A stretch of 64,000 bases of DNA from Hydrolagus affinis (Eukaryota), in assembly GCA_012026655.1 (NCBI GenBank), contig JAAILG010001088.1, positions 1 through 64,000 on the forward strand, written 5' to 3'. The notes under the pieces were generated by a model that saw only the letters and a program-made list of their open reading frames with translations, searched no databases and was not told the origin of the DNA. Both the position numbers and the translations under genes were made by a program. Shown here piece after piece: positions 1 to 23,316 of this stretch; position 1 is the first letter of the stretch; the number at the start of each line of letters is the position of its first letter.

Positions 1-66
1 GGGGGGGGGGGGAAGAGGAGGAGGTGAAATCGAATTGATTTCACTGTCTGGAAACGTAGAAAACTT

Positions 67-159
67 TAATGATAATAATAATAATCCTCGCGTTTGGACA
101 CGGCGCTTTTCACGTCTTCGAGGCGTCTCAAAGCTCCTCGCCGAGTGTACCGCCAAGCG
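67..159 (-). mobile_element. SINE 3' tail, strongly GC-shifted copy
   Basis: (AAT)n-CCTCGCGTTTGG...GCGCTTTTCACGTCTTC aligns to the tail of the window's dominant SINE. Confidence 0.85.
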
Positions 160-3100
160 TACACGTGCGTGAGCCGCGCTGTGTTTGCAAAGCTGGCTAA
201 TTTCGGGGCTACGGTTCGCTCGGGAGCCACTGCGAGGGTTCGCGTTCGGAGCACACGGGGAGCGGGTAGCCCGTCCCAAAGCCGAACTCCCATCGCAGTG
301 AGAGAATCTCTGGACGGTAGCGGGGAGCAGATTGTGTGCAGTGTTTTCAAAAGTGCCCCTGGGTGTATGTGCCTGTGAGCTTTGCCTTGTGCTGTACAGT
401 TAACATGAGTATCTGCGCAGTGATGAGGGAATATTAAGCATTGATGCAGTCGGTAACACACGTCGTCTTGGGGGCTTCCCCAAAATTACAGACGATAAAT
501 AATATACTGGGTGTAATGTAGGCAGTGTTTGCTGACCGGAGTAATTGCGTGTGTGTGTGTGTGTATGCATCGCACATCTGTATGGCCACATGTGCTTGTT
601 TCAATCTGAACAGGTGAGCTGGCACACGGGTGTGTGTGTGTGAGTGCGCGCGCGCGCGTGTATGTGTTTTGATTGCGCTCACAGGCGCCTCCCTCTCCCC
701 TTGACTCGTTGTCAGACTCCGCCACTGTGAGGCTCTCCGGGACTCTACCCTGCGTGAAGGGCGCTACATAAATGCAAGTTGTTGTGGCGGTGGTGCGAGT
801 GTGCGAGAACGTGGCTGTGTGAGTGTGCCGGCAGATATAAACCCTTTTATTACACAGAAGGAGGTCTTTCAGTCCAAGTAATGCTGGTTCTTACAGATCC
901 ACACCCCTACCTTTTCCTCACACTCGTTCCCCCCCCACCCGTCACCCCCCAGCCCCTTTTTGTATAGTTCCTGTTCAAACGTTTGCTTATTTTCTATTAA
1001 AGGCTGTTGTGAATTCTGCCTTGCCTACTGTTTTCTTTGGTCAGACATCCATATCCTACTAACCATCTGCGTTTAAAAAAAAAAACGACTGCCGTGCTTT
1101 TTTTTTGGTAATGAGCTTGAGTTCTTGCCCTGACCAGTAAAAGTAATTTCTCACTATTCACCGTATTAAAACCCTTTGCAGTTTTGAATATCTCTTTAAT
1201 GTCCCCCTAACCTCCTTCCTTTTTAGCGGAAATGTTAACAGAAGCGATTTATGTAGCACCTTTCACATTGAGAGGATGTCTCAAACTCTGCACGATGCTG
1301 ACCGAGAGAAGCTGGGATGGAGTTGGGTGGGATGGAGGGGTTTGGGGTGGAAAACGAGGGAGGGAGGTTAGTAGGAAAGACACCAAAAACACGATGGAAA
1401 AGAAGTCTCAACTTCCCCTCTGTAGTCTCTCTCTCTTGCATTCTGTGCCTCAAATGATAATAAAGCCAAGAATGCCTTTAGCTTTCGGGGGGGGAGCGAA
1501 ACCCATCTTTGTTAACTTGGCCTCACTCTTTTGGCAATTTGTGTATTAACTTCTACATCTCTCTGCTCGTCCACTCCTTTTAAAAGTTTGTCTAATTCAG
1601 TTGCCACTCCTATTGCTTCCCCCAAAATTACCTCATGATTTTTTCTGCATCAAATTTCACCTTATGTCTTCCTAATTTCACTAATTTATGTCTTCCTTAA
1701 TTTGCCGAGAATCCTCTTTCCAGTTAGCCATGCTCCCTCTGTGTCTGTAAATTCTGACATGGTACTCCCTATAACAATGGTATACTATGTACATGTTTAA
1801 GGATACACGTGTGGTATGTATGTGTCATGTGCTTGTATGGTTACGTGTGAATGTGCATGTATGTGTCTGCTTATATGTGGGCATGTACTTTTTTGGGGAT
1901 AATATCAAGACAGACATGTCTATGTTATTGGTGGGTAACGGTTAATCCCAAACCAGCATAAACCCATCCTCAAAATTGTTCCAGAATTGTTCACGTTGCT
2001 AATCCCCGATTAGCCAGAATGAAGCCAGCATTCCAATGCCTTTCATTAACCCCATTACCTATCAGTGTGATGCTGATCACATTAATATGAGGTTGTTAAA
2101 CTCATTCACAATTAGCCAACTGATGAAAGGGCACAGCGGGAAGTGGGTTGGGTCAGTAAAACAAGGAATACTCTGATGATATGGAAACCGGGGAGCAAGC
2201 GGTGTTTCGCTGATGCAGTTGAAAGCTGTACGCTTGCGAGGAGATTGTTTCTGGAAGTTTCTTATTCAGCTAAAGCTACTTTACTTTGCAGAAGTATTTT
2301 CGCCCTGTGTAGCGGTTGCATTAACAAGGGTAGTTAGTCACGGTGGTGAAACATTTAAATAGCTTTGCGGCATGTCCGGGCTTTCGTGTGTTTTCACTCC
2401 CGCCTGAGCAATGGCATAAGAGGAGGGACCGCTGACAGGTTCAGAGCCACGGAGACGTCTGCCTGTCCCGATTCGTTGTTGCCAGCGTTCGGCAAGTCTG
2501 GAACAAAGTGCTGCGTCTTTCAAAAACATGACCAAGACTTGGGACAGGATGCAGCGAGCGCTCGCGTCTGTAACGCAACCAACTCTTGTGGCTTTTTTCC
2601 TCAAATTGTTTTTCTGGGAAAGAGCCAAGCCACGCGGTTGTGAGCTATTGCTGTGCAATTAATAAGGGGTTGATGGAGCTTGCAGATAAAGATTTCTGCC
2701 TGATACCTTGTCTCTCGGGAGTGAGGGAGACACTATTTGGGGCGCGAGGGAGACGCGGAGAGACGAGAGAGAGAGAGAGAGAGAAAGATGCAAAGGAGGT
2801 AGTCATTTTTTTTTCACGACCTTGCAGGTCTGTGTTTGTTCTTGGCATGAGATACTTCTGGCAGCTACCGAAAAGAAAAATTCCTATTATGCTTCCTATT
2901 AACTCACTTAATACTTCTAGGGGCAAAGATGAAGCAAATAAAATCCAGCTGAAAAGTTGCCCTTCACAAATTGTCAATTGCATTGGATTTACAGCTGAAA
3001 CGTTTTATGTTCTCCCCCAGAAAGGATGCTTTGCTTATAAGCTACAGTCAGGCCATGGAGTTTGTCAATGCGATAGATGATGTTTTATTGAAACGCTGGA

Positions 3101-3877
3101 GGGGTAAACAAACTCGGGTTTTGTGGCTATATTTCACAACTTTGCCTACTGCTCGATGGAGTCTCGGGAAGGATGTTGATGATTCGCATTCAAGGATTGA
3201 AGCAGGATGTGTTTCACTTACATAACAGGAACTAACTTTCAAACTGTTCACAAATCCATACCGCTACGTACATACCGTGACACACACACGCTTACCCACA
3301 CTTTTGCACATACTGCATTTTGTCTGGTTGTGTATGGGAATTGCAAAGGAATGTTTTTGATGGGACAGATTCACCCCAAGCCTCCAATCCCACACCCAAT
3401 TTACCCACCCCCCCACCGCCATCCATTCCCCACACCCTCCCTCTCCCCACCTCACAATCAACCAATACACCTTGTCTCAAGGTTCTTAGGTTATGTACAC
3501 ACATCTAATGCATCCATCCCTTTTGGAAGCTAAAGATTCTGAACAATCTCCAGAATGTTATTTAATGGCTTACAGATGATTCTTTGAATATCTGGGAATT
3601 TAATATTAAATCAATGATGCTTGTGCTTTTCATAAAAGATGAGATCGCATGACAAACTGGCTTTTAAAAGCTGACAAATAACTGGCTTTGTAGCAGGGTT
3701 TAACTCTCAGTTGACCAAGTCAGATTCGAGAACTAAACTAGACGGAGTATACAGGACTAGGTTATTTCATAATGAATTCAAGTAGAAAGCCATTATCATT
3801 AGATAACCTGCTATCAAACGGTTTGATAGCAGAGTAAGGATTGTAAAGGGCAATTTCAGGATGGACACTAGGAAGTA

Positions 3878-3987
3878 CAGGGTAACCAAAAAGTCTTATT
3901 TTTCAGCTGTAATATGTTAAAAACAATCATAATTTCTTTAAGACTTTTTAGACATTATAATAGTATCACAAGTTTTTGGTCACCATG
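3878..3987. mobile_element. Tc1/mariner-like MITE, 110 bp, abutting an old CR1 fragment
   Basis: TA|CAGGGTAACCAAAAA...TTTTTGGTCACCATG|TA: imperfect TIR with TA TSD. Confidence 0.65.
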
Positions 3988-4013
3988 TACTGTAATTCGT
4001 TACTTAGGATACA

Positions 4014-4329
4014 GAGTCCAGTAGCTCAGTGGTCAGAGCACTCAGTCGCCTTACAAGCATGAGAACTGTATTCGAATCCTGGCAGGAAGGGGCGAAACCT
4101 TGAGCAAATTTCCTTACTCCACATGCCTAATAATAATCCCTCCAACAAAAGTAATAATAAAATTGGTCATTTCAATCGACAACTGTTTGTGGGACACTGC
4201 TGTGCAAAATTGGCTGCCGCTTTTCGTCCACAAGTATAGTCAAGTCACTTTACAGTATATTCTGTGTAGTGCTTTCAGATGTCTAGAAGATGTGAAAAGC
4301 GCAATATCAAATGCAAGGATTATTATTAT
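4014..4329 (+). mobile_element. Full-length tRNA-derived SINE (dominant family)
   Basis: Box A TAGCTCAGTGG, box B-like TTCGAATCC, body GTTTGTGGGACACTGCTGTGC, tail GCAAGGATTATTATT; more than 25 related copies in the window. Confidence 0.92.
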
Positions 4330-5119
4330 CTTGCAATTGGATCTCCAGAATGAATGGTTGAGGCCAGGATGCTGGACTCATTTGAAGAAGTAGCTTAAGT
4401 GAGAGGTTGGAAGCATGGACGTTCTGGAAGATTAGGTCAAATATGATATCAGCGTGGCTTACTGTTCATTTCTAGCATTTCCAGTGGTTGCCTTGATTCG
4501 AACACAGGTCTTATGCTGGTAAGGCGAGTGCTCTAACCACTGAGCTACATGACCCTTCTAGACGTCTCAAAGCGCTTCACAGAATATACTGTAAAGTGTC
4601 TTGCCTTTTGCACCCGCAAACTATGGGCAGGAAGCCATAGCGGAATTGGCCACAGTCCTGTGCTATTACCAGGGTGTGTTATAGCTGGGTTGGGTTGCAT
4701 CTCGGGTGAAGTTACTGGAACCTCCCTCATTGTTCAAGGGAAGCAAAAGTCAACTCCAGTTACATTGCTGCTTTGCTGCTTTGTTCATTAGCTCATCCTT
4801 GGTTGTCTCCAGTGGACTATTTAGCATTGGCTATTTGACACTCAGCTCAAACTTTGGACTCTTAGTTGCCAATCCCATTCCCTTGTGTTGGGAGGACTCA
4901 GTGAGTTGTGAGCATCTTACTTTGTACAGTACTTTTACTCGGTTCTTCTTTCTTCCATCAGTCATGAGAAATCTTCAGTTCATCTGATCAGTTCCCAAAT
5001 CCCAGAATATGAATTATTTTGCTCAGAATCTTCCTGGAACTGTTGCAATTTGGTACTTGGACCAGAATTAACTCTTGTCTTTGATTTTCAACTAAGCCTT
5101 TTGTACCAACCACACTAAC

Positions 5120-5636
5120 TTGCACTCTGCTGTTAATTACACCTCTACCTCACTTGCATTAATTACACCTTTAACTCTCTCCGAACTCAGTGGGTGAGAT
5201 GTGTAAATAATGGATGAGAGTTAGGGATAATTATTAGTGTGTTAGCTATAATTATTTATACCTCTAGCTGTCTGCTGGTATTTAAGAGGAGTTAGGGTGT
5301 AATAGATAACATTGAGTTAGACTGCTGATAGCTACACCCCCACTGATCTAAATTAAATGTCTAACTTGCTGTCATTAATTGCATTAACCAACCAACACTA
5401 GTTAGATGCTCACAATCCCTGTTACTTTCACCCCCACCGACTGTCATAATTGCAGCTTGAACTTTGCGGTTAATTAGGCTTCCTTTAAACTCTGCCATTA
5501 ATTGCATACAGTAAAAACAAATATTCATTACACCTCAAGCTCTGACACTGATTCCATTCCCAGCCATCTTCCCTAAATTACACCTCTAGCTTTGCAAAGA
5601 ATTAATTACACCTCTAATTCACTGCTATTAATTACT
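5120..5636. repeat. Degenerate ~25-bp repeat with core TAATTACACCTCTA
   Basis: Core copies at 5134, 5160, 5527, 5576 and 5603; inverted copy near 5296; CTG(C/T)N(N)TTAATT variants in between. Confidence 0.6.
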
Positions 5637-5639
5637 GTA

Positions 5640-6180
5640 TCAACAACCTTTTATATAGCACCTTTCACAGAGGAAAATGCCCTAAAGTGCTTCACAGAGA
5701 TGGAGTTGGGGCTCAAACAGGGTGTAATGTGCGATAGTAGAAGGGAAATGACCGAAACCAAAGTGAAGGACGTGTTTTTTTGTTGTTGTAGTACAGTATT
5801 TTGAAAGCAGAGATGGAAGATGGAAGGTGGAGGGATTCATGCAGAGAGTTTCAGAAAGAGAGGTCAGACCATCTGAAAGCTTGGTCTCTGATAATGGGCC
5901 ATTGAGGACAGGAACATTGAGCAGGTTTAAGTTGGCAGAGTACTGTGTAGGAATCAGGCTGGGAAATTGGAACAAATGAGACCAGAGAGAGAGGTTGTGT
6001 GGGGAAGAACATGGAGCCAGTTTTAAAGTTAGAATAGCGATCTTAAAGTTAGTCTGTTGAGGAACAGTGAACCGTTGGATCCTATTGAGCATGGGGTAAT
6101 TGGTTTATGGAGCCTGGAATGGTAAAGTCTGAGGTCATTGGCTGTCACTTGAGGAGGAAGAATTGAACTGTGAAGACCAG
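5640..6180 (-). mobile_element. Old L2 LINE 3' fragment
   Basis: CAACAACC..TATATAGCACCTTTCAC tail; minus-strand remnant NFKIAILTLK. Confidence 0.65.
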
Positions 6181-7253
6181 TGAGGAAGACTCAAGTTGAT
6201 GTTCAGTTGAAAAAAGTTTTGATTCAGGACTTGATTCAGGACTCCCTGGATCCCTGTTTCCAAAGCAGATCGAATTCACGATCCTGAAGTTTTCCTAATA
6301 TGAAAAGTGCTATACCAGATTCAAGGATTATTATTACTATTATTAATACAGTAGTTACAAGTCTGAATCTGCCGTTGTTTGCCAATATAAATTGCTCCTT
6401 TAATTGCTCTCAGCCCCTGTCATTAATTGTCCTTTTTTTAATTCACTAACATTGTAGGTTGGTCAGCATGTTTCAGTATGTGGGTTGCACAGTAATTGTA
6501 GTGTTTCTGTAGTACTCAGATGATGCTTCCACTTTTCTTATTATTTCTGTTTTATTCCTGCAAAGTTATTAAATAATCTCTGAGTGTGCAAAGCAAAAAT
6601 GGGCGCTTTGCCATATAATAGTCCAGGATCTATATAGTGTTTTTATAGCCTTGTAAAAGTTGAAATTTCTGTGTTTATTACTTAAATATATTAACACAGA
6701 CTTTTCACGACTGGAGTCCAGTTTATAATGAAAAAAGGCATCCTAATTGCAGTGCATTTAAACAGAAGTGTAAGAGATGGGGATGGGGGGGGCACAGGAA
6801 TAGGTTTGAGGCCCCTGGAATATGTGTGTCGAGGGGAGAACTGAAATAATATGAGTGGGAATGGAGCATTGGAATAGGAATGAGGTACAGTACTTTATAA
6901 AGTTCTAGCGAGATAGTCTCACTAACATCGCGGTTTCAGCTGATTACACTCAAGCACATATTCTGAGGTCCCCAAGCCTCCACTCTTGCCAACCTGTCCT
7001 TAATACTTTCCGGATTTAGGTAAGCAGGGTGCATCCCTCCAGGGAGAGAGTTTGCATTCCAATCCAGACACAGGGACATTTCCATATGTAAGTGAAACTG
7101 TCTGGTTTGGTTTAAGCACAGTGATGGTATTCCTCATGTGTCAGACACCCAGCGAACCCCAGCCTCCCAACCACCAAAAGGCATTATATGTTATATTTGA
7201 TGTTAAGAGAAGGAATTGAGATCAACAAGTTGGAGAGCTGAACGGATATTTAC

Positions 7254-7580
7254 ATAATAATAATCCTTGCATTTGATATAGCGCTTTTCACATCTTATCA
7301 ACGTCTCAAAGCGCTTTACAGATTATACTGTAAAGTGAATTGACTATATTTTGTGGGTGAAGCGCGGCAGGCAATTGCGCACAGCAGTGTCCCACAAACA
7401 GAAGTGGATCGAAATGACCAATTTTTATTATTGTGTTTTGTTTTTCTGGACGGATTATTATTAGGCGTGTGGAGTAAGGAAACTTGCCCAAGGTTTTGCC
7501 CTGACCTGCGTGGATTCGAACACAGGTCTCACGCTTGTAAGGCGAGTGAGTGCTCTAACCACTGAGCTACAGGAGCTCCA
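7254..7580 (-). mobile_element. Full-length tRNA-derived SINE
   Basis: Reverse complement of the same family, head through (TTA)n tail. Confidence 0.92.
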
Positions 7581-9815
7581 CAAAGGTTGTAAGTGAGAAC
7601 ACAGACTCAAGAGACGTAAACGTCAGGAAAAGAGCAGGAACGAGACTTGAGATGTGTAAGAGTGATGCACGCCAATTGAATATACATCGCGGTGAGCGAC
7701 ATTTAAACCAACTGATGATTCTCATTCCTAAAGAGCAGCATGGTGGAAAGTCTGTGACCTGAGACGCAGACTGAATCCTTTCCAGCAGGAGACTGAACGT
7801 ATTGTCTGACTTTGCTCCAATTGCCATAGGTAAAAGGAGAAATGTGCCTCTGTGAGGGAGCCTTTGAATGCCAAGCTGGTTGTGGGTGGGTTTCCTAATC
7901 ATAGGCTCGTATTCAAACACATATGCTCGCAAGCTGCTCAAATGGACTTCCCTGTTTTTTTCATTTAGCTGCTTGTAGTTTTCGAAAAGGAAATTCAGTG
8001 AAATGGTTTGGCAGAATGAAAAGAGGATCGGTAAAGGAAAATGCTGCTCAATGTAGCACACATTCCAGCTGCTTTTCTTCTAACAATAGACTTAAAGCAA
8101 GATTTAGGAAAAGGATTTGAATCTGCAACCTGGGGCTGAAATTCCACAAGTCCTACTTTCTGTGTTAATGGTGCAGAATTTTGTATAGTGTATGAGGTGA
8201 GACACAAGGCAATTCAACTCAGAGAGGGAGAAAGACAGCTCTTTAGAGTTCTGTCAGAGCAAAGCCAAGATAATCAGTAAGTGTGAAATGTTTCAAGTCT
8301 TCCTATAGGTTTTCACAGACATCTGTTCAGATCTGCTGCAGTGACATATTTAATGTATCTACGGTTGTTTAAACTTGGTTGGTAGGAGATCTGCTTAAAC
8401 ATGCGATGTTTGGCACTGTTCTCTGCACTCCCTGGACATGAAAGAAAAATAGAGAATTTTGTCTGAAAAGAAACGTTATTTGTTGCTGAAACCATTGAAG
8501 TCGTCAAATGTGACTGCTCACACTGCAATTTATTGCTTTCATTTAGTTCTAAATTGAAATAATTTTCGTTTGCAAAGCAATTCCCTAAGTATGTGCTGTG
8601 GTTCCCTGCCTGTGTGAAGAACATGGAACAGTCTTTTAGGCAGTAAATGCCAATCTCTCCCGCAGCGTTGGTTCCTACTGTGGCCCAAAGCAGTGTATTT
8701 GCTGTGTTGTATCTCAAAAGAGCTATTTGACTGGTTTGGTTGTTTTCATATTTGTTATATCTGGTGAAAGGATACGATGGAAGTAATTTAATCATGATTT
8801 AATCATCAAAAATCAAACCACAGTACTACATTTAATTAAAAATTTAATTAAAAAGCAAGTCGTTACATTTCGCCCACGAAACACACAGTCCACACCCACA
8901 ACAACGGCAACAGAATTACATTTGTATATCGCAAACACTATCTGTGAAGCGCTTTGAGACTTCTCAATGATCTGATAAGGCACTATACCAACTGCAAGGA
9001 TTTAAAAAAAATATTATGTTGCCTTAAGGATTATTTAAACTAAGTAAATCAAATTTGTACACTAAAAATGGATCCGTGGAAAGATTATCATAATTGAAAT
9101 AAATGTTTTTCCCAGTCTTTCTTATAGCTTTGCATGTTTCTACAATGTCAATGTACATTAGTAAGTTTTTAATTATTTAAAGCAATGGAATGAATTTGGA
9201 TTGAATAGTACCTTGATTATATTCCCAAACTACCATGTTCACCACATTTGGCGTAAATACCTACCCAGACTCCTCGACCGCAGTAGAGTAATTATTTACT
9301 CTTATCCTGAATATGAGATGTGAACCAAGCTCCTGTTTGCCATTAAAAATCATTAAAAAATCTATGGCACTGTTCGATAGGAGAAGGATGTCATGTCACC
9401 CGGTGACATGCCCGGTCATGGATGTCAACACAACTAGATTAAAAAAAAATCTGTTATGGTTGCCTACAAAATACAGTCACTACATTTTATAGTAAATCTT
9501 TTGAAGCACTTTGAGTCATTTTGACGACATAGGTGCCACATCAAATGCGAGTACGCTATATACAACAACAACATTATGTTTGTGTAGCGCTTTTCATGTC
9601 GGGAGGACATCACACTTATCTCTCAAGTCACACCAGGAGTTGGGAACCTTACTCACATGCTGCTATTGCTTATTGGACACTGGGTGTCACTGCTACAGAA
9701 AGTATAGGTGGACTGTATCTGGATCAGTTGTTGCAGGACTGAGCTGCTTTAGTTAGTTAACTAGCACATTTACACGTGTGCAAGATATTAGAATTTTTTT
9801 AAATTCCATTCCATT

Positions 9816-10123
9816 GGAGTTCTTGTAGCTGGTTACAGCACTCGCCTTACAAGCGTGAGACCTGTGTTCGAATCCGGGCAGATCAGGGCGAAACCGTGGG
9901 CAAGTTTCCTTACTCCATAAATCTAATAATAATCCCCTCCCAACAACAAACAAACACAAAAAAGTAATAATAAAAATTGGTCATTTCAATCCACTTCTGT
10001 TTATGGGACGCTGCTGTGCGCAATTGGCTGCCACAAACGTACGGTCAATTCGCTTTACAGTATATTCTGTGAGACGTTGATAGGATGTGAAAATCCCTAT
10101 ATCAAATGCAAGGATTATTATTA
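9816..10123 (+). mobile_element. Near full-length tRNA-derived SINE
   Basis: GGAGTTCTTGTAGCT...GTTCGAATCC...GCAAGGATTATTATTA. Confidence 0.9.
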
Positions 10124-10511
10124 TCATTCTTACTTCAATGACACTTCTTACATTTACAAACCCCTAGCTTGTGTGGAGTTCCCTCCACTCACTGTGATCT
10201 TGAGAAACTGTCCGTCAAGCTGTTAACGTCAGGACCCTGTGTGAGGCCACTTCATTCACAAAGTGGCAGATGTAATTAATGGATACATTCACTTTGTGGA
10301 TAATGGGCAATAACAGAGGGAGAGAGAGCATATCATTGTCAATCCCATTATTTCGAGCTCGATGCTACAAGTCGGTAGAGTGAGTATTCAGGAAGGATGA
10401 GATCGAATGGCCCAAGGGGGTCTGGCTGCGGTTGAATCTCTCTTGCTTTCTTTGTGAAATGGAGCTTTTTTTTTCCCTCCAGTGTTTCAGCAGGTTGCAC
10501 AGTGGAACGAG

Positions 10512-10595
10512 ATGGGCTGGTACGGAATGCTTGTACTGGGACTGAGCACTTTAGTTTGTTCCTTTCTGGCAGTTCAGTTACAAGCTGCAAAGGCT
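10512..10595 (+). CDS. THSD4: Candidate alternative first coding exon of THSD4 (signal peptide of a short isoform)
   Basis: ATG in strong Kozak context (GAGATGG) opens MGWYGMLVLGLSTLVCSFLAVQLQAAKA. A GC donor (GCT|gcgagt) would join it in phase 0 to the exon at 10704. A polypyrimidine acceptor lies upstream at 10482. Confidence 0.5.
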
Positions 10596-10703
10596 GCGAG
10601 TATTATTCACAGTTAAGTTGGTGTTAAAGTGTAGTGTTGTAACAAGTAAATTTCTTTTTTCTCCCCCAACCACATTCCCCCCCACCCCAACACACACACA
10701 CAG

Positions 10704-10908
10704 AACATTGGCTGTGACGATTACCTGGGCTCTGATAAAGTAGTGGATAAATGTGGAATGTGCGGAGGGGATAACACGAGTTGCAAGGTTGTATCTGGCA
10801 TCTTCAAAGACAGCCTGTCGAGTGTTGGATATCACAAAATCATCGAGATCCCCGAAGGAGCAACGAAAATCAATGTGACTGAAATGGCTAAGAGCAGGAA
10901 TTACCTGG
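10704..10908 (+). CDS. THSD4: THSD4 exon (end of Cys-rich module, start of spacer), 205 bp, phase 0-1
   Basis: cag|AACATTGGC...TACCTGG|gtgagt; [68 protein letters not shown]. Confidence 0.95.
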
Positions 10909-13900
10909 GTGAGTACTCAATGCACAACGGCAACGCGCTAAGAACGCTTCTTCTTAAAAGCGGCATATTAAAAGTATTGGCTGAAATACGTTTAATGTGT
11001 TGATAGCTGGCAATCGAGTCTGTGAATTGCTAACCGAAGCTTGAGTTTAGTGGCTCTCCATCTATTAAGCTGATGTTTCTCATTATCTCACCATATTTCA
11101 TGCTCTGAATTTGGGTTAATTAAATTCCTATGTCAGAGAACTATCTGTGGAGATATTAATCGTGGTTTAATGCTGGAAAGGAGTGGACACATGATTGCAT
11201 TAAGTACACAGTCCTGTGGTTCTCACAGATCAATGAGTGCATGGCTGCTAGAATCTCCTTTTTAAATAAATATTTAGTAGCAATTTAATGGGAGACACTG
11301 TTTTATCGGAGGAAACTTTCTACCCTATCAGTCTGAGCCAGATTCAAACCCAGGTCACAGAGGGGAGTGTGTATCACTGCACCACCTATTGCCCCCTCTC
11401 TCACTGTACGCATATCTTTCAGTCTTTGCTCAGGCTTTTACTGAGAGTTTTAACAATTGACTCCTTTACTTTTGAAGCCCTGCGATATCGGTCTGGACGA
11501 TCTGTCATCAATGGCAACTGGGCCATCGATCGTCCTGGCAAATATGAAGGAGGAGGCACCATGTTCACCTACAGAAGACCCAACGAGATCAGGAGCACTG
11601 CTGGAGAATCCTTTTCTGCCGAGGGACCAACAAACGAAGCCCTGGATGTTTTTGTACGATTTACTTTGACTTTTCTAGCATATGTGTTACTCGACGTTAC
11701 TGCCGTTCTCCAAACACAGAAAGCAATCAACGAACGAGACTATAGAACAAGTTCTAGAATGTAACAGTCAGCAAGTGCAGTTATACAGAGCGTTGGTCAT
11801 TTGGAGTATTGTGGTGATATACTTGCAGCCTTGAAGCGTGATCAGTAATGATTCACCAGATTAATGCCTAGGATGGAGGGGTTTAGTTGTCATAAGAGAT
11901 TTATATTCCTTAGATTTGAGGAGATTAAGGGGTGATTTGGCTGAGATATTCAAAATAATGAAGGAGAATTGACAGGCTAGATCTTGAGGACTCTTTGTCT
12001 AAAAATGTTCCTATCAAACCAACATGGGAAAGAAAACACTTACCTTTTGTGTTTCTTTTCACAGATGATCTATCAACAATCCAATCCTGGTGTTCAATAT
12101 GAGTACATCCTTCCCAATGTTAATGTGGTCAGCCCTTTGCTACCTCCCAGCATAAGACCTGGTAAGACTGAAACCTTCCAGCATCTACCGTGATCAGTGA
12201 GGCATCACGGAGCTTCTTTCACTTGTGTGAAAAACTCATTCCTCTTAAAGTGATGGGTGAGTGAAGCAGGAGATTCCTGCTGCCAATGGAAGAACCTCAA
12301 TAATAATCACTGTATCTAATATTTATCTGGACTTAGGTATTCAAATGGTCAGTAACCCAATCAATGGAAATGTGTGGAAATTGAAAGAGGGGATTCAAAC
12401 TCTTAGCCACTGCTCAAACTTAGCAGGTCTAACTGGTGGAGCCGTCACTCAGTGGGAAGGGACATGTGTCCGAGTTGTGGGCAGGAAGATGGCTCTCATG
12501 CATTTCGCAAGCTATGTTGCCCACCAGGAACCTTGCAAGGACCTTGATCTAACAAACCAATATCCGATAAACCGATAGCACAGGCTTGATGTACTGAATG
12601 GGCACACAGATCTTTTTCACAGAGTGTTGGCTAAGTAAATTGTTTGTCTCTTTGGCTTCTCCCATGTCTGTGGCCATGAAATCCCAGTTTTTCTAGGAAA
12701 TCATATGGCTGCACGTAATGACAGCAAGGACAGATTGCATCAATTTATTTTGATTGGCATTATGTCATTGTGAGCCTCCATAGCAAACAAAATGAGAACA
12801 ACATGTTAATGATAGTTTGTTTTCTTGGGATCCCCAAGTGACACTAAGACTCATATGGTTTATGTGAAGAAAAACACCAGAACAGGATTAAAGGGTTGAT
12901 TAGCCTGGCTCTGCTATAAATTCTGTGAGACCCGCAGGAAGGTCCCAGATCAGCACTTAATTTTCTCCATTGGTCTGATGGTAGAGCCTTGAGTTTGCTT
13001 CCATAGCCCTGGGCTAAGCATGGAAAAAAAACAGTTTGAGTTCTCCCTTTGTTTACTGTCCAGTAAACGCTTATGGAGAGTGCAGGCTGGTGGCACTGGG
13101 TGAGGGTTGCTGCCTTGGGAGATGATGGAAGCAGAAAGTGTTGATTCTTTCGAGGAAAAAATGAGACAGATTTCAGTTAGGAAATAATATCTCGGGTTAC
13201 AGGATACAGTATGGGACATGACATGAGCAGGAGAGTGCTGGGAAGCGAAACAAGATGGACCTTGGTCTTTTGTCTAGCAGTTCTTACGTGCTTATGTGTT
13301 CTTATGAAATATCTTGGTCAGCTAGGCTAATCACACACTTCAGTCAGTCTATTCCATGAGCCAATATGGTTGTGTTGGTCATGGAATTTTATTAAGAGTT
13401 TTCACATGTTGCCAACCGGTGATTACACAGCAGCGTTTCCCTCAGGTGAAGGCAGCCTGGTCTGTTGCAGGCATATCCTACTTGTGAATTCCAGCAGGGA
13501 ATTATGATTGAAAGCCATTTAAGAACCTGCATTTCATGTGCATTTCACTTGATGTTTCAGGCCAACCTAAAAAGGAACATTTGAGGAGGGAGTTAAAACA
13601 GGTTCCGTGGCTCGCTGCAGTTGATGGATAATATTTTAGTTTGGTGGCTCCTGTTAAAAATGGAAACAACCTTCATTGCTGCCTGGAGCGTATTTTGGAT
13701 GAAATTCAGAACAAACTAACTTGGCGTATCTCATTACCTACATACCCTGCGTCTTACATGTGGAGGTTAATGTCAGTTACTGTGTTGATTAGATTCTTTA
13801 CTTTGTGTTTTATTCCAAGGAGAACCATTGAACGGCCAATTGGATGTCACTGAGAACTATCCCGGTTATGAGAATGGACGTTTCCAGCCAGGACAACCGC

Positions 13901-16900
13901 CTCCCCCGGAGCGAGGTCATCAACCAACTCGCCGGGAGTACAACTGGAAACAGGTTGGGGCTACGGAATGTTCGGCAACTTGCGGCAGAGGTAACGAACA
14001 TCAACTCACTTGGGCAGCACCTTTCACTTAAGATGAACGCCTCGGAAAGCTTCACTGAAGCGATCGAGATCAACGGGCAGAAAGGACTGAGTAGAAACTA
14101 GGTGGTGTTGGCCCAAACCACAGTAAAAGATGTGTTTTAAATGGAAAGGAACGTACAAGATGAAAGGATATTGAGGGCGTGGGGGATCTTGTAGCTACAA
14201 AATGCGGTCACTGATAGTGGGAATGTGATTGGGAGGAATGAGTGAACCAAAGTTGGAAGCACAGTGACTGTGGGCAGGAGAGTAAGACTAAAGGGGATTA
14301 AGCTTTGATATAAGGCCTTATCACATCAAAACATCTTCTCTTGCAAAGAATATACAGTAAAAGCCACACACACACAAAAAAATACATTGTGCCGGATAAA
14401 TTCCGGTTAATCGAATGGGGACCCTTTTTTTGAGGTACCGGTTATACTGAAGATTGGGTCACGGATAAACAGGCTTTTACTGTATTTTGTCTTGTGTAGT
14501 GGTTATGGATTGGTACTCAAAGGCAGCAAATAATATGTGCAAAGCAATGTCCTACAATAAGCCATGAAGTAAATGTCTGTTTATTAAAAACAATTGTTAT
14601 TCTCTACAACATTGGGAGAAATCCCTGTCTCTCTTCAAATAGGATCTTTAACGTCCACCTGACAGGTAGAAGGGACTTCAGTTAAACAAATCATCTGAAG
14701 GATGACACCTCCGACAATGTAGCATTCCCCCAAACACTGCAATAAAGTGTCATTTGTCAGCTCAGTGTCCCGATGTGGGGCTTGAACCAATATATAGAAT
14801 ATTTTTATATTGAATTCATTGAGACAGATGGGAGTGGAACCAAGAGGGAACCACTTTGGTGGTCGACTAAGAGAAAAGTTGAAGGAGAATGAGAAGGTTA
14901 AAAGCATTAAAGGGAGTAGAGAGACTGTGGGAATACAAGTACTGTAAATCACACACTGTGAGATACAAGGAAGTAAAGCCTAGACTGATTTGAAAAACCT
15001 GGATCACGGATTCTAATACTCCTTCACCAGATCATGACTTAAAATTTACGTTAAACATTTTTTAAAGTTGCAGCTGCAGGATTAAAAAAATTTATATACA
15101 CACACACCAGCATGCTAGGTTAAAAAAAATGATTGCACCAAATCAGCAGGAGTGAAATGCAATTCTCCACTAGTCTGAGAGGCATTCAGCCGCAAAGCAA
15201 TGTATATTTTTTGGGAACGTCTGGTTTATATAAGTCTGTTTGGTACTTACTGCTGGTTCTCACTGCTGTTTCAGGCTCCCGTTACACAATCTTTCGCTGT
15301 GTGAACAGAAACAGCCACCAGGAGGTTTCAGACAGTCTGTGTGACATTAATATGAAGCCAAGCTCCGAACAGGAGGCCTGTAACACCAACTCCTGTCCAG
15401 CCTTGTAAGAAAACCAACTTGTGATTTTTTGTTTCCATACTTTTCTCCCTCTTCCTTGTGTGTCTGTCCTCTACGACATGTCTAATTGTCAGTTTGGTTC
15501 TCTCTCTCTCTCTCTCTGCCGATAGTTGGGATATTGGTGAATGGTCAGAGTGCAGTAAAACCTGCGGCCTGGGGATGCAGCACCGGCAGATTCTTTGCCG
15601 ACAGGTCTATGCAAACCGCACCACAGCCGTGCAGCCACAGCGCTGCCAATACCTGGAAAAACCAGAGACCACCACCACCTGCCAACTGAAGATCTGCAGC
15701 GAGTGGCAGATTCGGACAGAATGGAGCTCAGTAAGTGTCTCCAGAGATAAGAACGATAATTACACAGGAGAAGTTCGGGTGAAGCGGAGCCTTTGCCCAT
15801 TTCATCTCATCCTTTCCACAATACCCACCTTCCTCTTTTCTCGTCACATCATCAAGCTATTTCTTAAATGTGTCCAGCGTCCTGTCCTCAGCCACCCTTG
15901 CTGATAACCCATTTCATTCTAAAAAGAAATACTTACCGGTGACTCCAAAATGATCCTTTACAACCCTGACCCTCTTTAAACCATTGGTTCTGGGTTTATG
16001 TTCTCAGTCATGTTTAGAAACAAACTGTAAAGTACCTCTAAAGTCCCCTCAAAGCCATCACTTGTCAAGATCGATGAACGTATCTAATTGTTCTCAGAGT
16101 CTAATGTGAATTGATTTGACAATAGAACGAGGCAACCTTTGTCTTGTTTATTGCCTGCTCAACGCTGTTTGACATGATAACCAACAATGAGTAACTTAAA
16201 CACCCCTAGGTCTCGTTTAGCTCCTTGAAAAATGCTAGCCCATCCATGGAGTACATTGTGCCTCCTATTCTCCTATGTGTAATACAGTACCTTGTATTAT
16301 CTGTGTTGAATTCACTGCCAGTGGTCGACTGACGATTGTATCCTCTTTGTGAGTATCAAGCTCTCTTTGTAAGAGGTTGGCTGTCTCTTATTCCAGTTAC
16401 TCTGTAACTCTGTGCAAGGCAATTAAATTGTCAGGTAATACAGAGTCTGTGAATCCAGTCATTAATTGTGCTGGGATGCTAATAGATCACACTTTGCGTT
16501 GGTCAGCCGCAGGGAGCATTGATTATTTATGCTTCTTCATCGGAGAGGGACCTAAAAATAAATCTGAACCTGACAAGCAAAATGCTTTTAGAAGGCATTC
16601 TTGCGGCAAGGATTCACTGGAGATTGAAACAAAGTTGATGCCAAGTCGGCATGGGGAGCGGGGGGGTGGGGGGGTGGCAAATCTGACTCGGTGGGATTTG
16701 GAGAGTTATTCAGCCCCAAATCTGTTAATAAAAGACGAGACATTCTGCCCTTTGATAATTACTACATCACACACTGCAAACCTTCCCCCCCACACCCTCC
16801 CGTCACCCCTACATGTGCAGACACCGAGCAATGCACATAGCTTTCTGCTCAGAACACTGGGCAAAAGGAGCGCAGAAGCAATTCTAAACCTGGAGACACC

Positions 16901-19900
16901 GGTTGCAATTGGAACAGCTGCTTAAAAGGCACATGCCTGATACCAAATAAACTGCTGGAGGTTTGTTATTCTTCTGGTCTTTAAATTTTGCTTCCCAGGT
17001 TTTGCGACGAGTGAGGATTGGCATGTGATGCTTGCAATGCCAGGCGGTGACAGCTGAATAGAGAATGTTTCAGTACAGTCCAGCTCTGTTTCCCTGAGAA
17101 GCATAGCCAGTGATGCCTCAGACCTTTGTTTTGTTGTTTTTGCAAATTTGCTCTTTTCCTTGCTCATTTCTTGATGGTGTACGTACATTTCTAGATGCCC
17201 TCCACTCCTCAAATTCCTCCACTCCTCTGCACACCTCCTACCTCTCCAACCTCCTCTCTCCTCAAACCAGCACCCGTTGCCTTCGCTCCACCGGGTCTTT
17301 CCTCCTTCTTGTTGCTGATGGTGAAGCGGAAGATTTGGGGGACAGCCACTATGCCCCGAGGCTCTGGAACTCCCTTGCTCACTCCCATTGCCTCTCCCCC
17401 TGTCTTCCCAGTTTCAAGTCTCAGCTAAAGACCTTTCTCTTTGACCGCGCCTTTGGTCACCTTTCTCTCCCTGCCCTTGGTTAGTCCCCGGGATCCATTA
17501 TTTTGAAGCGCTCTGAGACGTCGTCCGGTGTGGAGGGCGCTAATATAAATTGAAGTTGTTGTTGTTGTTGCCCTGTGGTTTTTGGTACCTCACTGAAACT
17601 GACCATTGCTCGTGTGTGAGTGGCTGCCGGGGGCATCTAATCCAAATGCGAGCCTTGCCTGAGGTCCATACGTGTACCTTCAAATAGTGGGTCTCTGAAT
17701 TTGGAGCAGGGACCCTGGGTCTCGTAGCCTCAAGCTGCCAGCCTTCTGGTCTGTATAACTTATTGCTGAGACGCGTGACAGATCATGAAATCATTTTCAT
17801 ATTTCTTTCTCATTTCTGCAAAATCTGGGACAAAACTAGTTTCAATCACACTGCCCAACAGATGCTGACGCGATAAGCCCATTGAATGGAACAATCGTTG
17901 AATTGTTTCCCACCTGATTTATTTCATCTCATAGTGCTCGGTACCTTGCGGAGTTGGCCAGAGAAGCAGAGACGTGAAGTGCGTGAGCAATCTGGGCGAT
18001 ATTGTGGAAGATGAAGAGTGCAACATGAAACTAAGGCCCAATGACTTTGAAAATTGTGACATGGGCACGTGTGCTAAGAGCTGGTTCTTCAGTGACTGGA
18101 GTGACCGGGTAAGGATACTCTTTACAGTCAATGTGGGCTATTGTTGAGCTGTGAATTCATACAGTGATTTTTGAATGATAATTATTTTTGAGTGCCAGCA
18201 CATCAATTAAAGTCCATTTGCAGACATAAAACAGATGTGAAGAATGGAAAAAATTGAAGTCGCAAATCATTTTAATGTCAGTCTGGCTTTTAAAAACTGT
18301 TGCGGAGAGATTCCACCTGGGACTGAATTTTGCACTATTTATATAGCATTTTAAGAGTGTCCAGAACTTGGCAAATTGTAGAATTCAGGTTTAACTTTGA
18401 AGCTGTTTTTTTTTCTCTACTGAAATTGTCTTCAGTTTCTCTGAACGCCAACCTGCCCGAACCACGGTCACTTGATTCGTTGAGCTCAACAGCCTGTGGC
18501 AGGTCTTAAGCGATTTTTCAGTGCCACATCACTGCCCATGCAGTGACTGTTCCTCGGGGAAGCAATTTTGTATGCTGAGCTGCACACGCATATTACTGCC
18601 CCGGCATAGAAACGATCTCTTGTCAGGAATGAGAATAAGGAATAAATAAAAAGCTCACTATTGGGATTGCTATTGCAACAACACTTCATCAGTCCCGTAG
18701 TGCAGCGGCTAGCACTCTCGCCTCGCAAGCGAGAGGACACGGGTTTGATTCCCAGGTGAGGCGAAACCTGAGCCAAGTTTCCTTTCTCCACACGCCTCTG
18801 TTTGCCTAGCAGTAAGTAGGAACCTGGTTGTTAGTTGATTGATGGATCACTTTCCGGGATAAGAATTCCTAAAAAAAAAAAAAAAAAATAGTCACTCAAT
18901 CCACGGCTGTTTGTGGGACACTGCTGTGCACTGTTGGCTGGTGCTTGTCGTCCAAAACAAATACAGTCAATACACTTTACAATCTATTCCGTGAAACTCT
19001 TTGGGATGTCTCAATGACTTGATAAGGTACTACATTAAATGCACTGAATATTGTTATCACTAGGATAAAGCTAATCTATTTCATTACAGTCTTTACTCAG
19101 TGCACGTTCCTTATTAGTAGGCGAACAATCCAACACTCGGTGCCTTCACTGCTCTGCTGATGTTCTATAGAAATCTATGATGCAGATTGTATTAGTCATT
19201 GTATACCCATTGTATTAGTCATTGTGCTTGCACTTCCAGTTAAGCCATCCATCCTTGTTCAACTAGTAACAGGATTAAAGGGAATTGGGTTATCCTTGAA
19301 TTTAATATAGTGATATTTCCTGTCGAGGGATGTCTTGAAGTGCTTTATAGTATTTTACTGTATTTACTGTAAATACAGTAAAATACTGCATTTACTGTAA
19401 ATGCAATAAAATACAGTATTTTACTGTAAAGTGAGGTGGGACAAACTTTCAAAACAAAGGTCATCTGACGCAAAATGTTAACATTTTCGACACAAATCGA
19501 ATGTTTGCAGGTGAGTTTAACAAGTGCGTTTCAATGACTTGAGTCTTTGTGTTGTTTCAGTGTTCAGCAGAATGTGGAGAAGGAGTAAGAACCAGGAATA
19601 TCATCTGTCTGACCAATCACATCAGCAGTCTGCCATTGGAAGGTTGTGGGAATGAGCGCCCAGCGGACACGCAGACCTGTGTCTCTGCCTCGTGTTACAG
19701 TCACACGGAGTGGTACACAGGACGATGGAGCCAGGTGAGCACAGTATCCAAAGTGCTGAGTTTGTTCCTCGAACTGGCTCTCGTTTTAATGAGAAGGGTT
19801 AATTGCTGGGATGCAGGACACTCGTTGGCTCCTGGTACAAAGATCATGTGCTGGGACAGATTCGTTAGATCCTCACGTGAGCAAATTCTAGTTTGACAGG

Positions 19901-22900
19901 AGGAAACCGCTTTGTGATATAAATGGGACTTTTATCTGCTTTTGATTAATCTATTCTCCCCAGATCCCTAGTCATTCTCCAGCTCCTATTTGAAGGATTC
20001 TGCTGATCCAGCCTCATGAACTACATGTGGTGAATGAAATCCACACCCCAATTCCAAGTCTATGCCCCCTACCCGATTCTCTAAGATAACAGGGAATAGT
20101 TTTCTCTATTTACATTGTTGTGCCCCATCGGAATTCAAAACATCTCTTTCCAATGGGAAAAACACCAATTTTGCTCCAACCAATATATATTATAGGATTG
20201 TTCAGCTTCCATTTTGGCAAGCTTTATTTGTCACATCCATGGAGTACTTGGGCTCCTATCTATACTTCCTATATGCATTACTTCAATACTTCTGAGAACA
20301 CCCATCTCTTTGTCTATTGTATCACAGAATCTTTTATCATTCCACAGGAACAGGACCTCAGTTAAAATGTCTCATCCGACTTCTGGCAATGCTTCCCCAT
20401 TAATGCACTGGATTATTAGCCTGGATTGTTAGTTTGAGTCCCAGATGTGTGGCTGAACTGGTTCCCTATTTCAAACAATGGCGTACTTCTTGGTTTTCTA
20501 TCAAGAGGCATTCTGACCTAGAGGAGAGAATGACACCTGGTGGGATTACATGAAACAGTATACAGGTGCTATGCTATGTTACTGATCTCAGCCAAAGCTA
20601 CAATTAGTCTCACTGTCCCAAGGTTATGGAGGGGAGGGGGATAATATTTGTACAATTTAGCGTTGCTCACTAACTTTTTTCTGAGAGCAAGGAAATTTTC
20701 ATTTGTTTGGAATGGAGACTCTCTCCGGAGGGATGTACTCTGATCACCTAATCCCGGAAAGTAATAGGTGCAAGTGGACTCGATAGTGTGCATTTAGGGC
20801 ACTGCTGGAGTTTAACCAGCTAACAGCATGGAGCTTGCCATTGCTAGGAATGATTGGCAAGCTTCCCACAGCTTGTCTAATTATTTTACCATTTGGGGCT
20901 GTGGTTTGCTGGATTATCAGCAGACGACCGGGAAGAATGCCTTCCTCTCATTGACTGATTTGCTGCTCCCAAGTCCTGCTGACAATCCAGGCTGGCTGGC
21001 TGTTCAACAGAGTCTCGGAGTGCTGGAGACCTGCCTGGCTCAGGGATCGGTCTATTGAGACCACCACAGAGGATTGATTTGATTCTGATATTCAGTTTGT
21101 CAGACATCGAGCAATACTGCATGTTTATTGGGACTTTCTGAATGTGGTGTTTATATGAATGTTCACTCAAGAGCTTGAGTTATGCTCCCTTCAGTGCTGC
21201 TTTTAGCAAAGGATTTATTACCTGAATTTACAACTTCTCATTTACTCTTCAGTACATTTTGGCAATTTTGTGCTCTTTCAGGAGGTGAAAAATGCAAGCT
21301 TTTTCATAGCAGATGTTGTCAACCATTTGTATTTTTTTTTAAAAACAAACAAACCCCAAATTAGATTTCCGTGTCCTTGAAACAAAAATTCCCAATGTTT
21401 TGTAGGTTTAAATTTTCACCAAAGCTTTTAGTTTAGAAAATGACTATTTAAAATGTCTTGTTCACTGTCTGGTTATAGTGCTCTGCTGAATGTGGCAGAG
21501 GAACTGAGCATCGGGATGTGACCTGCATCAGGAAAACGGAAGGGAGATTTACTGCAGTGGATTCCTTTGAATGCGCTTCTCAAGACAGGCCTCCCTCTCG
21601 GCAATTGTGCTTCCTCAAGGCATGTGGCACAAAATGGTTTTATACTGAATGGAGCACAGTGAGTATTGAATCCAGTCAATCCTCTCCTAGTGTGTGATAA
21701 TCAAATAATAAAGTATTGCCATTCTCATAAGTCCAGTGAGTGGTATGGTAAAAATATCAACACAGTCAAGAAAAGCCCATTTGCCATTGAAAAGAATTAT
21801 GAATTGCATTAGCTTTATATTTTTTTGGTCAATTTTTTTCTCAAACTGGCAAGAGTTGATAGGCTTGACTGTCTGAGGAATTGTTAGAGCTGTTAATCCA
21901 GTGTGTCTCACCATTCCTGTTCGTGAATGGCAACCGTACAGCAGAATGTACCATTAAAGTGATCTGAAATTTACTATTGATTTCGTCCAAAAACGTTACT
22001 TTACAATTTAAGAGGAAGTATAATTTTGTTTATTTTAATTCAGCCTTAATTTAAATCCAATTCCAGTACTCTTGCTGCCTTTAATTTGATGATTACTGTA
22101 CTTTTTTTTTTCCACCTTCCCTTTATAGGGTTTGTTGTGATGTATTTTACTGGTTCCATTCCTACTTGCCCAATACCATCACCACATCTCCTCCAATGGC
22201 TTCTCAATCCTACCGCCCCATTAACACCAATGGCGCTATCAAGGGCTCCATCCTATTCCTTTCCTATTCCTGTGCCATACTGAAGCATCAGGGGACTGAC
22301 ACTTGTAAAATCAGCTAACACCTTCTTTATTTGCTTCAGTGTTCCAAGTCTTGTGAAGGAGGGTTCAGAGTGCGTGAAGTGCGTTGTCTGACAGATGATA
22401 TGATTCCTAGGGACAATTGTGACCACAATCAGAAACCAGAGGAGCATCAGAGCTGCAACAATGAGCCCTGTGTCCCAGAAATAGGTATGTAACCAATCTC
22501 AAACATTCACAGCTTCCTGGGAGATAGAAATGGAACACAGCTGTGACTACAAATGTTGCATGGTATCCCTACCTGTTTCTTCCACTGTGGTATGCAAAGT
22601 TTCACAGACTACTGGAATTCTCTGTATTATTCGCTTCTAAAATGCAGCTACTTTTTTTTATTCGTGATTAATGGAAAAGGGAAATTATTTTGAAGAATCT
22701 GACTTCGCTTGTGCCTGTCATGCTAATGAATACAGAGGTAGTGAATGACTATTACCGGTGAAATCCCTTGAAGGGACAAATGAGAATACAGAGCTAGATG
22801 ACTGCTATTATAGACAATTCAGCTGGTTCTCCTATGCGGGTTATCAGAAACCGTTGCAAATTTATGATTTGTTCCACTTCCATTTATTTGGTCTCCCTTG

Positions 22901-23316
22901 TTCCACACAGTCTGACCAGGGGACAGATTTGCCTCCAGCCTCTTCCACTGTTGCTGTGAAAGTAATTGCTCACAGTTGTATGAGAATGTGTGTGTGTGCG
23001 TGTGTGCATGTGGGGGGGGGAGTTACACTGTCAAATTGGCTCAGTCAGGTGGCACTGTGGCTGTGTGAGGATACAAACTTGGAAACGGAGGGAAAAGAAA
23101 GAACACAAGACTTTTGTTTTTTGCGTTGATTTTGATTTTGACCGTTATTTAAACAATGGATTTCTTTTTCCAGACGAGAACTGCAAAGATAAATACTACA
23201 ACTGCAATGTGGTGGTTCAGGCCCGGCTCTGCGTGTACTCTTACTACAAGACGGTTTGCTGTGCTTCCTGTACCAGAGGGGCACGAAGATCGCCAGGGTT
23301 TGTGGGTCACAGATAA
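10704..23316 (+). CDS. THSD4: THSD4 / ADAMTSL6 (thrombospondin type-1 domain-containing 4), 3' 11 coding exons; 5' exons of the long isoform lie upstream of the window
   Basis: Hand-spliced exons total 1800 nt with matching phases and GT-AG introns. The product runs [18 protein letters not shown]...[21 protein letters not shown]...[21 protein letters not shown]...[33 protein letters not shown]...GFVGHR*, near-identical in motifs to vertebrate THSD4 as I recall it. Confidence 0.96.
11478..11653 (+). CDS. THSD4: THSD4 exon (ADAMTS spacer), 176 bp, phase 1-0
   Basis: tttgaag|CCCTGCGA...GATGTTTTT|gtacga; [59 protein letters not shown]. Confidence 0.94.
12065..12161 (+). CDS. THSD4: THSD4 exon (end of spacer), 97 bp, phase 0-1
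   Basis: cacag|ATGATCTAT...AGACCTG|gtaaga; [32 protein letters not shown]. Confidence 0.94.
13820..13990 (+). CDS. THSD4: THSD4 exon (Pro-rich linker and start of TSP1), 171 bp, phase 1-1
   Basis: ttccaag|GAGAACCA...GGCAGAG|gtaacg; [57 protein letters not shown]. Confidence 0.92.
14355..14482. mobile_element. Tc1/mariner (Tigger/pogo-like) MITE
   Basis: TA|CAGTAAAAGCC...GGCTTTTACTG|TA: 11-bp perfect TIR with TA target duplication. Confidence 0.75.
14590..14790 (-). mobile_element. Old DeuSINE fragment
   Basis: GGATCTTTAACGTCCACCTGA...CATCTGAAGGATGACACCTCCGACAATG is the reverse complement of the Deu core. Confidence 0.7.
15275..15404 (+). CDS. THSD4: THSD4 exon (TSP1), 130 bp, phase 1-2
   Basis: tttcag|GCTCCCGT...GCCTT|gtaaga; [43 protein letters not shown]. 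Confidence 0.94.
15526..15730 (+). CDS. THSD4: THSD4 exon (TSP1), 205 bp, phase 2-0
   Basis: (tc)n...gatag|TTGGGAT...AGCTCA|gtaagt; [69 protein letters not shown]. Confidence 0.95.
17196..17570 (+). mobile_element. L2-clade LINE 3' end (same family as 51955)
   Basis: [23 protein letters not shown]; tail GAAGCGCTCTGAGACGTCGTCCGGTGTGGAGGGCGCT...(GTT)n. Confidence 0.9.
17935..18108 (+). CDS. THSD4: THSD4 exon (TSP1), 174 bp, phase 0-0; absent from the ORF track
   Basis: catag|TGCTCGGTA...GACCGG|gtaagg; [58 protein letters not shown]. Confidence 0.95.
18691..19054 (+). mobile_element. tRNA-derived SINE, longer subfamily with an extra central segment
   Basis: Same head and tail plus GCCTCTGTTTGCCTAGCAGTAAGTAGGAACCTGGTTGTTAG, also seen near 46760-46800 (-) and 57950-57990 (+). 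Confidence 0.85.
19103..19142 (-). pseudogene. 40-bp degenerate fragment of nuclear 28S rRNA
   Basis: CACGTTCCTTATTAGTAGGCGAACAATCCAACACTCGGTG versus the recalled reverse complement of 28S, CACGTTCCCTATTAGTGGGTGAACAATCCAACGCTTGGTG: 35/40 identical, no gaps. Confidence 0.75.
19561..19734 (+). CDS. THSD4: THSD4 exon (TSP1), 174 bp, phase 0-0
   Basis: tttcag|TGTTCAGCA...AGCCAG|gtgagc; [58 protein letters not shown]. Confidence 0.95.
21479..21658 (+). CDS. THSD4: THSD4 exon (TSP1), 180 bp, phase 0-0; absent from the ORF track
   Basis: ttatag|TGCTCTGCT...AGCACA|gtgagt; [60 protein letters not shown]. Confidence 0.95.
22340..22484 (+). CDS. THSD4: THSD4 exon (last TSP1), 145 bp, phase 0-1; absent from the ORF track
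   Basis: cttcag|TGTTCCAAG...GAAATAG|gtatgt; [48 protein letters not shown]. Confidence 0.95.
23174..23316 (+). CDS. THSD4: THSD4 last coding exon (PLAC domain and stop)
   Basis: ttccag|ACGAGAAC...AGATAA; [47 protein letters not shown]. Confidence 0.96.

Follow-up and report, generated by a model that had tools for sequence, protein, structure and literature searches.

Short secreted THSD4 in the chimaera Hydrolagus affinis: a conserved leader exon on a separate contig as the likely start

The 3′ half of THSD4 in the window

The DNA analysed here, which we call the window, is a stretch of 64,000 nucleotides of Hydrolagus affinis, taken from the very start of contig C1088 in a fragmented, 1.11-Gb assembly. 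It carries the 3′ half of THSD4 (ADAMTSL6) as 11 exons, from 10704 to 23316, encoding 599 aa with a single terminal stop. Comparison with the elephant shark and Pfam showed that orthologous exons encode the spacer, the TSP1 repeats and PLAC. The window exons are 76–100% identical to those of elephant-shark THSD4, and the best matches carry the name THSD4. The first exon in the window, referred to below as the shared exon, has 97% identity with elephant-shark THSD4 and no more than 85% with the others among the matches listed. The parts of the gene found in the window are as follows.

1..10703, plus strand: 3′ portion of the long THSD4 intron that precedes the shared exon
10704..10908, plus strand: shared THSD4 exon with a phase-0 acceptor, end of the cysteine-rich domain and start of the spacer; first exon that the long and short forms both contain
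11478..11653, plus strand: THSD4 exon (exon 2 in the window)
12065..12161, plus strand: THSD4 exon (exon 3 in the window)
13820..13990, plus strand: THSD4 exon (exon 4 in the window)
15275..15404, plus strand: THSD4 exon (exon 5 in the window)
15526..15730, plus strand: THSD4 exon (exon 6 in the window)
17935..18108, plus strand: THSD4 exon (exon 7 in the window)
19561..19734, plus strand: THSD4 exon (exon 8 in the window)
21479..21658, plus strand: THSD4 exon (exon 9 in the window)
22340..22484, plus strand: THSD4 exon (exon 10 in the window)
23174..23316, plus strand: THSD4 exon (exon 11 in the window)

The ten exons from 11478 to 23316 together encode the spacer, the TSP1 repeats, PLAC and the stop. 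The long form has its 5′ exons on contig C2471, the last of which ends in AAG/gtgagc, phase 0; the long form would join the acceptor at 10703 from there.

At the acceptor of the shared exon (10670–10703) a CA repeat replaces the T-rich tract, with 9 of 17 positions being pyrimidines and none of them T, and a pyrimidine run lies farther upstream. The donor at 11653 (11651–11659), TTT/gtacga, is very weak and was placed by homology; a few intronic reads of the RNA run X4 (see below) fall downstream of it (11641–11853). We also noticed that read-through past the donor at 12162 (12065–12193) would add ten residues and a stop, ending the protein nearly as in a 200-aa elephant-shark model (P0002). 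Models of 179–258 aa carrying the leader of the short form (the beta leader) are present in cow, a frog and a perch, X4 shows some depth in 12138–12208, and ATTAAA occurs at 12887. A spacer-only short form of THSD4 may be conserved.

The start of the contig (1–1000 and 2001–3000) is rich in CpG and microsatellites, with CpG observed/expected values of 1.08, 0.74, 0.76 and 0.66 against 0.44 for the window, and may mark regulatory DNA near an internal promoter. SINE-like repeats with a tRNA-like head are abundant (4020–4330, 7260–7570, 9830–10110 and many later places), and LINE-like coding fragments occur as well, for example at 17107–17481 and 51917–52432. Possible poly(A) signals lie at 24355, 24421 and 25599, and no other clear protein-coding exon was found among the long frames listed for 23400–64000.

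A conserved leader exon on contig C175904

Transcript variant 2 of human THSD4 (ADAMTSL6-beta) is described as using an alternate promoter and as having a distinct N-terminus without the 5′ coding exons (PMC8559271). The mammalian ADAMTSL6-beta protein is reported to be secreted, to bind fibrillin-1 and to promote microfibrils (PMC10850197). In the elephant shark, Callorhinchus milii, a database model (P0002, UniRef100_A0A4W3IAN0) joins a 31-aa leader straight to the shared exon. This leader matches one place in the H. affinis genome, with 84% identity and an E value of 5.7e-8.

C175904:485-577, minus strand: beta leader exon on a 746-bp contig, with the ATG in a strong context (GTTAGGATGG)

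The exon encodes a 31-aa leader, MGSAWLLRITRSLILTVLCFLTSASALLKSE, and codon 31 is followed by the donor GAG/gtgagt, which matches 8 of 9 consensus positions and lies in phase 0, compatible with the shared exon and its xIGCD motif. If joined to the 599 aa from 10704, the leader gives a protein of 630 aa.

We compared both leaders with a gapless profile of 21 bony-vertebrate leaders only, aligned on the splice junction. The C175904 leader scored 16.3 and aligned in the same register up to the junction, and the elephant-shark leader scored 12.7; in each case none of 2000 shuffles did as well. Bony-vertebrate leaders among themselves score 36–58, far above the C175904 leader. As judged from these sequences, the homology of the C175904 leader is distant but specific.

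The family to which this leader belongs was surveyed in 189 proteins, fetched from the best 120 of 226 and the best 120 of 359 matches. Among them, 106 have the long-form junction (by pattern) and 28 share one family of leaders of 24–31 residues (26 by pattern, with P0090 and P0144 added by eye). The rest are 42 with different sequence upstream and 13 without the motif. Many of the 42 give the impression of automatic gene calls that read through an intron. The leader family spans mammals, alligator, frogs, lungfish, gar, sturgeon and teleosts, in addition to the one elephant-shark model. No short isoform from a shark was found among the best 120 of the 359 matches or in the 10 clusters examined.

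The contigs probably follow the order C2471, C175904, window contig, with the leader exon in a gap of the assembly that separates C2471 from the window contig; no overlap was found among the ends of the three. C175904 itself is rich in microsatellites and bears the likely true beta leader exon alone. An annotation of this assembly would therefore miss the short isoform.

A signal-peptide-like frame in the long intron

The earlier note on this window had placed the start of a short secreted form elsewhere, at a hidden signal-peptide exon just upstream of the shared exon. The features concerned are given below.

10375..10419, strand not assigned: 45-nt fragment of a high-copy dispersed repeat, containing the donor at 10380
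10466..10493, plus strand: acceptor-like pyrimidine tract with AG at 10481–10482 and tandem CAGCAG at 10488–10493
10512..10595, plus strand: candidate signal-peptide-like ORF of 28 codons, open to the TAA at 10614–10616; likely unspliced intron sequence
10593..10603, plus strand: proposed GC donor GCT/GCGAGTAT, matching the consensus at +1 and +3 to +8 and mismatching it at −3, −2, −1 and +2

The layout that was described is indeed present in the sequence. The ATG at 10512 stands in a strong Kozak context (AACGAGATGG) and opens the 28-codon hydrophobic peptide MGWYGMLVLGLSTLVCSFLAVQLQAAKA, whose last codon ends at 10595, 108 nt before the phase-0 acceptor (AG at 10702–10703). Splicing at GCT/gcgagt (10596) keeps the frame and gives 28 + 599 = 627 aa. 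The GT sites at 10600 and 10612 are both in phase 1 and thus out of phase, as claimed; a further GT at 10617 is in phase 0 and lies past the stop, the unspliced ORF being 34 aa long. The peptide ends in A-K-A, and its 11-residue hydrophobicity maximum is 2.37 versus 2.45 for the C175904 leader, this score being the sole measure by which secretion of either leader was judged.

Homology to the conserved beta leader was not found for this peptide by profile, local score or database searches. Its profile score is −0.9, equalled by 58 of 2000 shuffles, in agreement with the earlier remark that it does not resemble the known ADAMTSL6-beta leader. None of the 189 fetched proteins begins like it (best local score 32, self 141), database searches recovered no relatives, and Pfam found no domain in the 34-aa unspliced ORF. 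Scanning the six frames of the window with nine known leaders and an average profile gave no match that has both an ATG start and a donor end.

How often such a frame arises by chance can be gauged from the window itself. Both strands hold 881 ATG ORFs of at least 18 aa; 48 are as hydrophobic as the candidate, and 16 of these also have a phase-0 GT or GC site that matches the consensus at 5 or more of 9 positions. Two of the 16 entries are the candidate ORF, which alone has RnnATGG as well. A Markov null yielded 0.6 such ORFs per 64-kb strand, with at least one in 7 of 15 simulations, under thresholds that were taken from the candidate itself and with exon proximity and the acceptor left out of the null; about one such ORF per window is therefore expected. 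Closeness to the shared exon and the acceptor make the coincidence rarer, and this is the best point in favour of the earlier case.

DNA of a near relative (X1) could be compared over 10150–10670, where one contig at a depth of 33.7 differs at 8 of 521 letters, the relative being about 98.5% identical. Within the candidate the only change in 84 nt is 10521 T>C, which turns Tyr4 into His; the ATG, the GC and the frame are kept. The C175904 leader shows 3 changes in 93 nt, two of which alter the residue, both to the one found in the elephant shark. The near relative thus lends no support to a stronger constraint on the C175904 leader. A metagenome scan was uninformative, as a single locus was recovered in 406 stretches, with the exon 63% identical and the intron unrelated and AT-rich.

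The GC donor and the upstream acceptor

GC donors account for ~0.8% of human U2 introns, and a better-than-usual match at the remaining positions is reported to compensate for the C (PMC1557818; PMC3167603). The intron 10596–10703 has the GC and AG ends and keeps the frame, and the candidate shares with U2-type GC-AG introns the GC at +1/+2, AGT at +4 to +6 and the AG acceptor. A near-consensus match elsewhere, above all G at −1, was not found: natural GC donors, as reported, compensate by a strong exon side, whereas the candidate has no match at −3, −2 or −1. The weakness of the exon side had been conceded in advance, and is evident in a match at 5 of 9 consensus positions, none of them exonic. 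On the plus strand of the window, 405 GC sites match equally well.

In the supplement to PMC3167603, a table of 500 natural GC donors from human, not fish, GCTgcgagt occurs 0 times, and gcgagt is preceded by G at −1 in 20 of 20 cases. The only GCT entry seen in this table is a U12-type site, that of LZTR1. The table does contain donors with T at −1: tgcaagt is present 5 times, and TATgcaagt, with A at −2 and +3, is found in at least 3 rows. Against a motif for the U1 end, the duplex energy of the candidate donor is −3.7 kcal/mol versus −10.8 for the C175904 donor, the pairing being formed by +3 to +8, including +7 and +8. Nine of the ten donors in the window are stronger; the exception is TTT/gtacga at 11653 (−0.7). 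A second in-frame GC site, CTG/gcagtt at 10569, was considered as a donor and rejected, having no G at +5 and a duplex energy of −1.7.

It had been asked whether base 10597 is C or T in raw data. It is C in the assembly, and the X1 contig is unchanged at 10596–10597; the C of the GC donor is thus not an assembly error, since the relative's DNA has the same base, and a sequencing or assembly error at 10597 is ruled out as far as one relative can show.

Upstream of the candidate, acceptors end at 10482, 10490 and 10493, as had been noted. The ATG follows 18–29 nt downstream, and the latter two are in frame with it. The tract has 15 of 17 pyrimidines; among 3717 YAG sites in the window, 63 reach 14. 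The donor AGA/gtgagt at 10380, from which a small non-coding exon ending at 10379 had been proposed, is present and lies within a high-copy repeat. At 10375–10419 up to 39 X1 contigs are stacked, versus one contig at a depth of about 34 on either side, and the RNA reads that align there are mostly less than 90% alike and come from both strands. Weaker copies occur at 15790–15828 of the window and in L017; a genome search with a 71-nt stretch of the repeat, which skipped common words, matched only itself. With the donor at 10380 inside such a repeat relic, nothing special speaks for a small non-coding exon any longer. No TATA-like motif was found in 9801–10520.

RNA reads

Expression was examined in three single-cell RNA runs (X2, X3 and X4) from one sample of a near relative, using about 27–30% of each run. 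In X4, sense reads lie on the shared exons, the joint 10907^11477 is crossed by 3 reads, and depth on the neighbouring exons is 2–4. Near-identical reads are scarce in X2 and X3 (0 of 21 and 2 of 10, respectively, at 99% identity or more), and none lies on C175904. None of 61 aligned RNA reads covers 10434–10646, a stretch that includes the acceptors at 10466..10493, which have no RNA depth. One X4 sense read pair lies at 666–714 of C175904, in the 5′ part of the exon upstream of the ATG, and no read of the three runs falls on the coding part. At a depth of 2–4, and with read ends in the repeat at 10676–10705 excluded, no leader junction into 10704 was seen from either the candidate or C175904. 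These reads neither prove the C175904 leader nor refute the candidate, because a minor form could escape a depth of 2–4.

Which exon starts the short form

Taking the above together, we consider it likely, with a probability of about 0.82, that 10512–10595 is a chance hydrophobic ORF that is not spliced, and that short secreted THSD4 starts at the leader exon on C175904. Given its uncommonly weak splice site and the presence of a conventional leader exon on another contig, the candidate exon is probably unused. The C175904 exon would be transcribed from an internal promoter in the long intron, by analogy with human variant 2, and would be spliced to the acceptor at 10703, as suggested by the elephant-shark model and 27 bony-vertebrate models. 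Its product, 630 aa of leader, spacer, TSP1 repeats and PLAC, would be secreted and would act on fibrillin microfibrils in the way of mammalian ADAMTSL6-beta, for which effects on fibrillin-1 microfibrils and TGF-beta are described (PMC10850197; PMC8559271).

The frame in the window could nevertheless be a real second leader, i.e., a lineage-specific exon running from 10483 (or 10491/10494) to 10595, with a very weak GC donor held by pairing of U1 with the intron side, that yields a minor 627-aa form beside the 630-aa one. Its Kozak ATG, hydrophobic core, A-K-A end, phase, strong acceptor and 108-nt intron are all in order, the GC, ATG and frame are kept in X1 with U1 pairing at +3 to +8, and only one of the 881 ATG ORFs passes all four filters while lying 108 nt from the sole exon that accepts a leader. 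Moreover, GC donors with T at −1 exist in the human table, and THSD4 itself uses a weaker GT donor at 11653. On the other hand, the donor type is missing from the table of 500 natural human GC donors, the peptide has no database relatives, and its role is already filled by the C175904 leader; in addition, the upstream donor is a repeat relic, a TATA-like motif is missing from 9801–10520, and no reads were recovered, though the neighbouring exons reach a depth of 2–4 only. We regard this reading as very unlikely. The same low standing applies to its corollary, namely that chimaeras gained a newly born second signal-peptide exon 108 nt before the shared exon, spliced through a GC donor that lacks U1 pairing on the exon side, and that two unrelated leaders feed one short secreted matrix protein.

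Alternatively, the frame may be the remains of a leader exon that once had a GT donor and is now silent. The acceptor, the ATG, the hydrophobic core and the donor's intron side are all still present, a single base separates the site from the ordinary donor GCT/gtgagt, and the similarity to the leader profile, weak as it is (58 of 2000 shuffles), points the same way. An intact frame should not persist long once silenced, however, and X1 has the C too; besides, no annotated elephant-shark or shark product among the fetched proteins corresponds to it. We hold a decayed exon to be unlikely. It is also conceivable that the acceptor at 10482–10493 serves a cryptic exon used at a low level, which either stops at one of the phase-1 GT sites (10600 or 10612), with a frameshift and decay as the outcome, or is inserted in frame into the long form. 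The acceptor does have more pyrimidines, 15 of 17, than the real site at 10703, where 9 of 17 are pyrimidines and none is T, but the GT sites at 10600 and 10612 match just 4 of 9 positions each, no reads were found, and the window holds 63 acceptor-like sites of comparable strength. This last possibility appears highly improbable.

The view of the earlier note that a short form with a private signal-peptide exon on the xIGCD exon is ancient holds, and such a form likely exists here; the identification of the window exon as that leader most likely gives way to the orthologue on C175904. The suggestion of an independently evolved GC-donor exon is most likely wrong, since with the known leader's orthologue on C175904, behind a canonical donor, no such exon is needed.

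Comparison with known short forms

By the homology of its leader, the short form of the chimaera is, at the level of sequence, ADAMTSL6-beta. Human ADAMTSL6-beta (658 aa) uses the same shared exon in the same phase, and the C175904 leader belongs to the same family; the chimaera leader differs in being 7 residues longer at the N-terminus, with a product of 630 aa. The window candidate, in contrast, falls outside the leader family and would require a non-consensus GC donor. The C. milii model has a leader 84% identical to that on C175904, joined to the same exon (97%), and differs in that it runs on into the intron once the spacer exons end, with no TSP1 repeats. A long and a short transcript are also described for Drosophila lonely heart (loh; isoforms A and C), a likely ADAMTSL6 orthologue (PMC3708815).

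The short isoform is already known in mammals, and database models exist for amphibians, reptiles, lungfish, gar, sturgeon, teleosts and the elephant shark. A search by title found no paper on the THSD4/ADAMTSL6 leader in cartilaginous fishes, a result that carries little weight. Should the GC exon prove real, it would represent a signal-peptide exon that arose anew, with a GC donor beyond the known range. As it stands, the short form of THSD4 is an isoform type already known, and the window exon is probably not the one used. The gain from this locus is a small one: a homology argument for one leader exon across jawed vertebrates, together with the place of that exon in this assembly.
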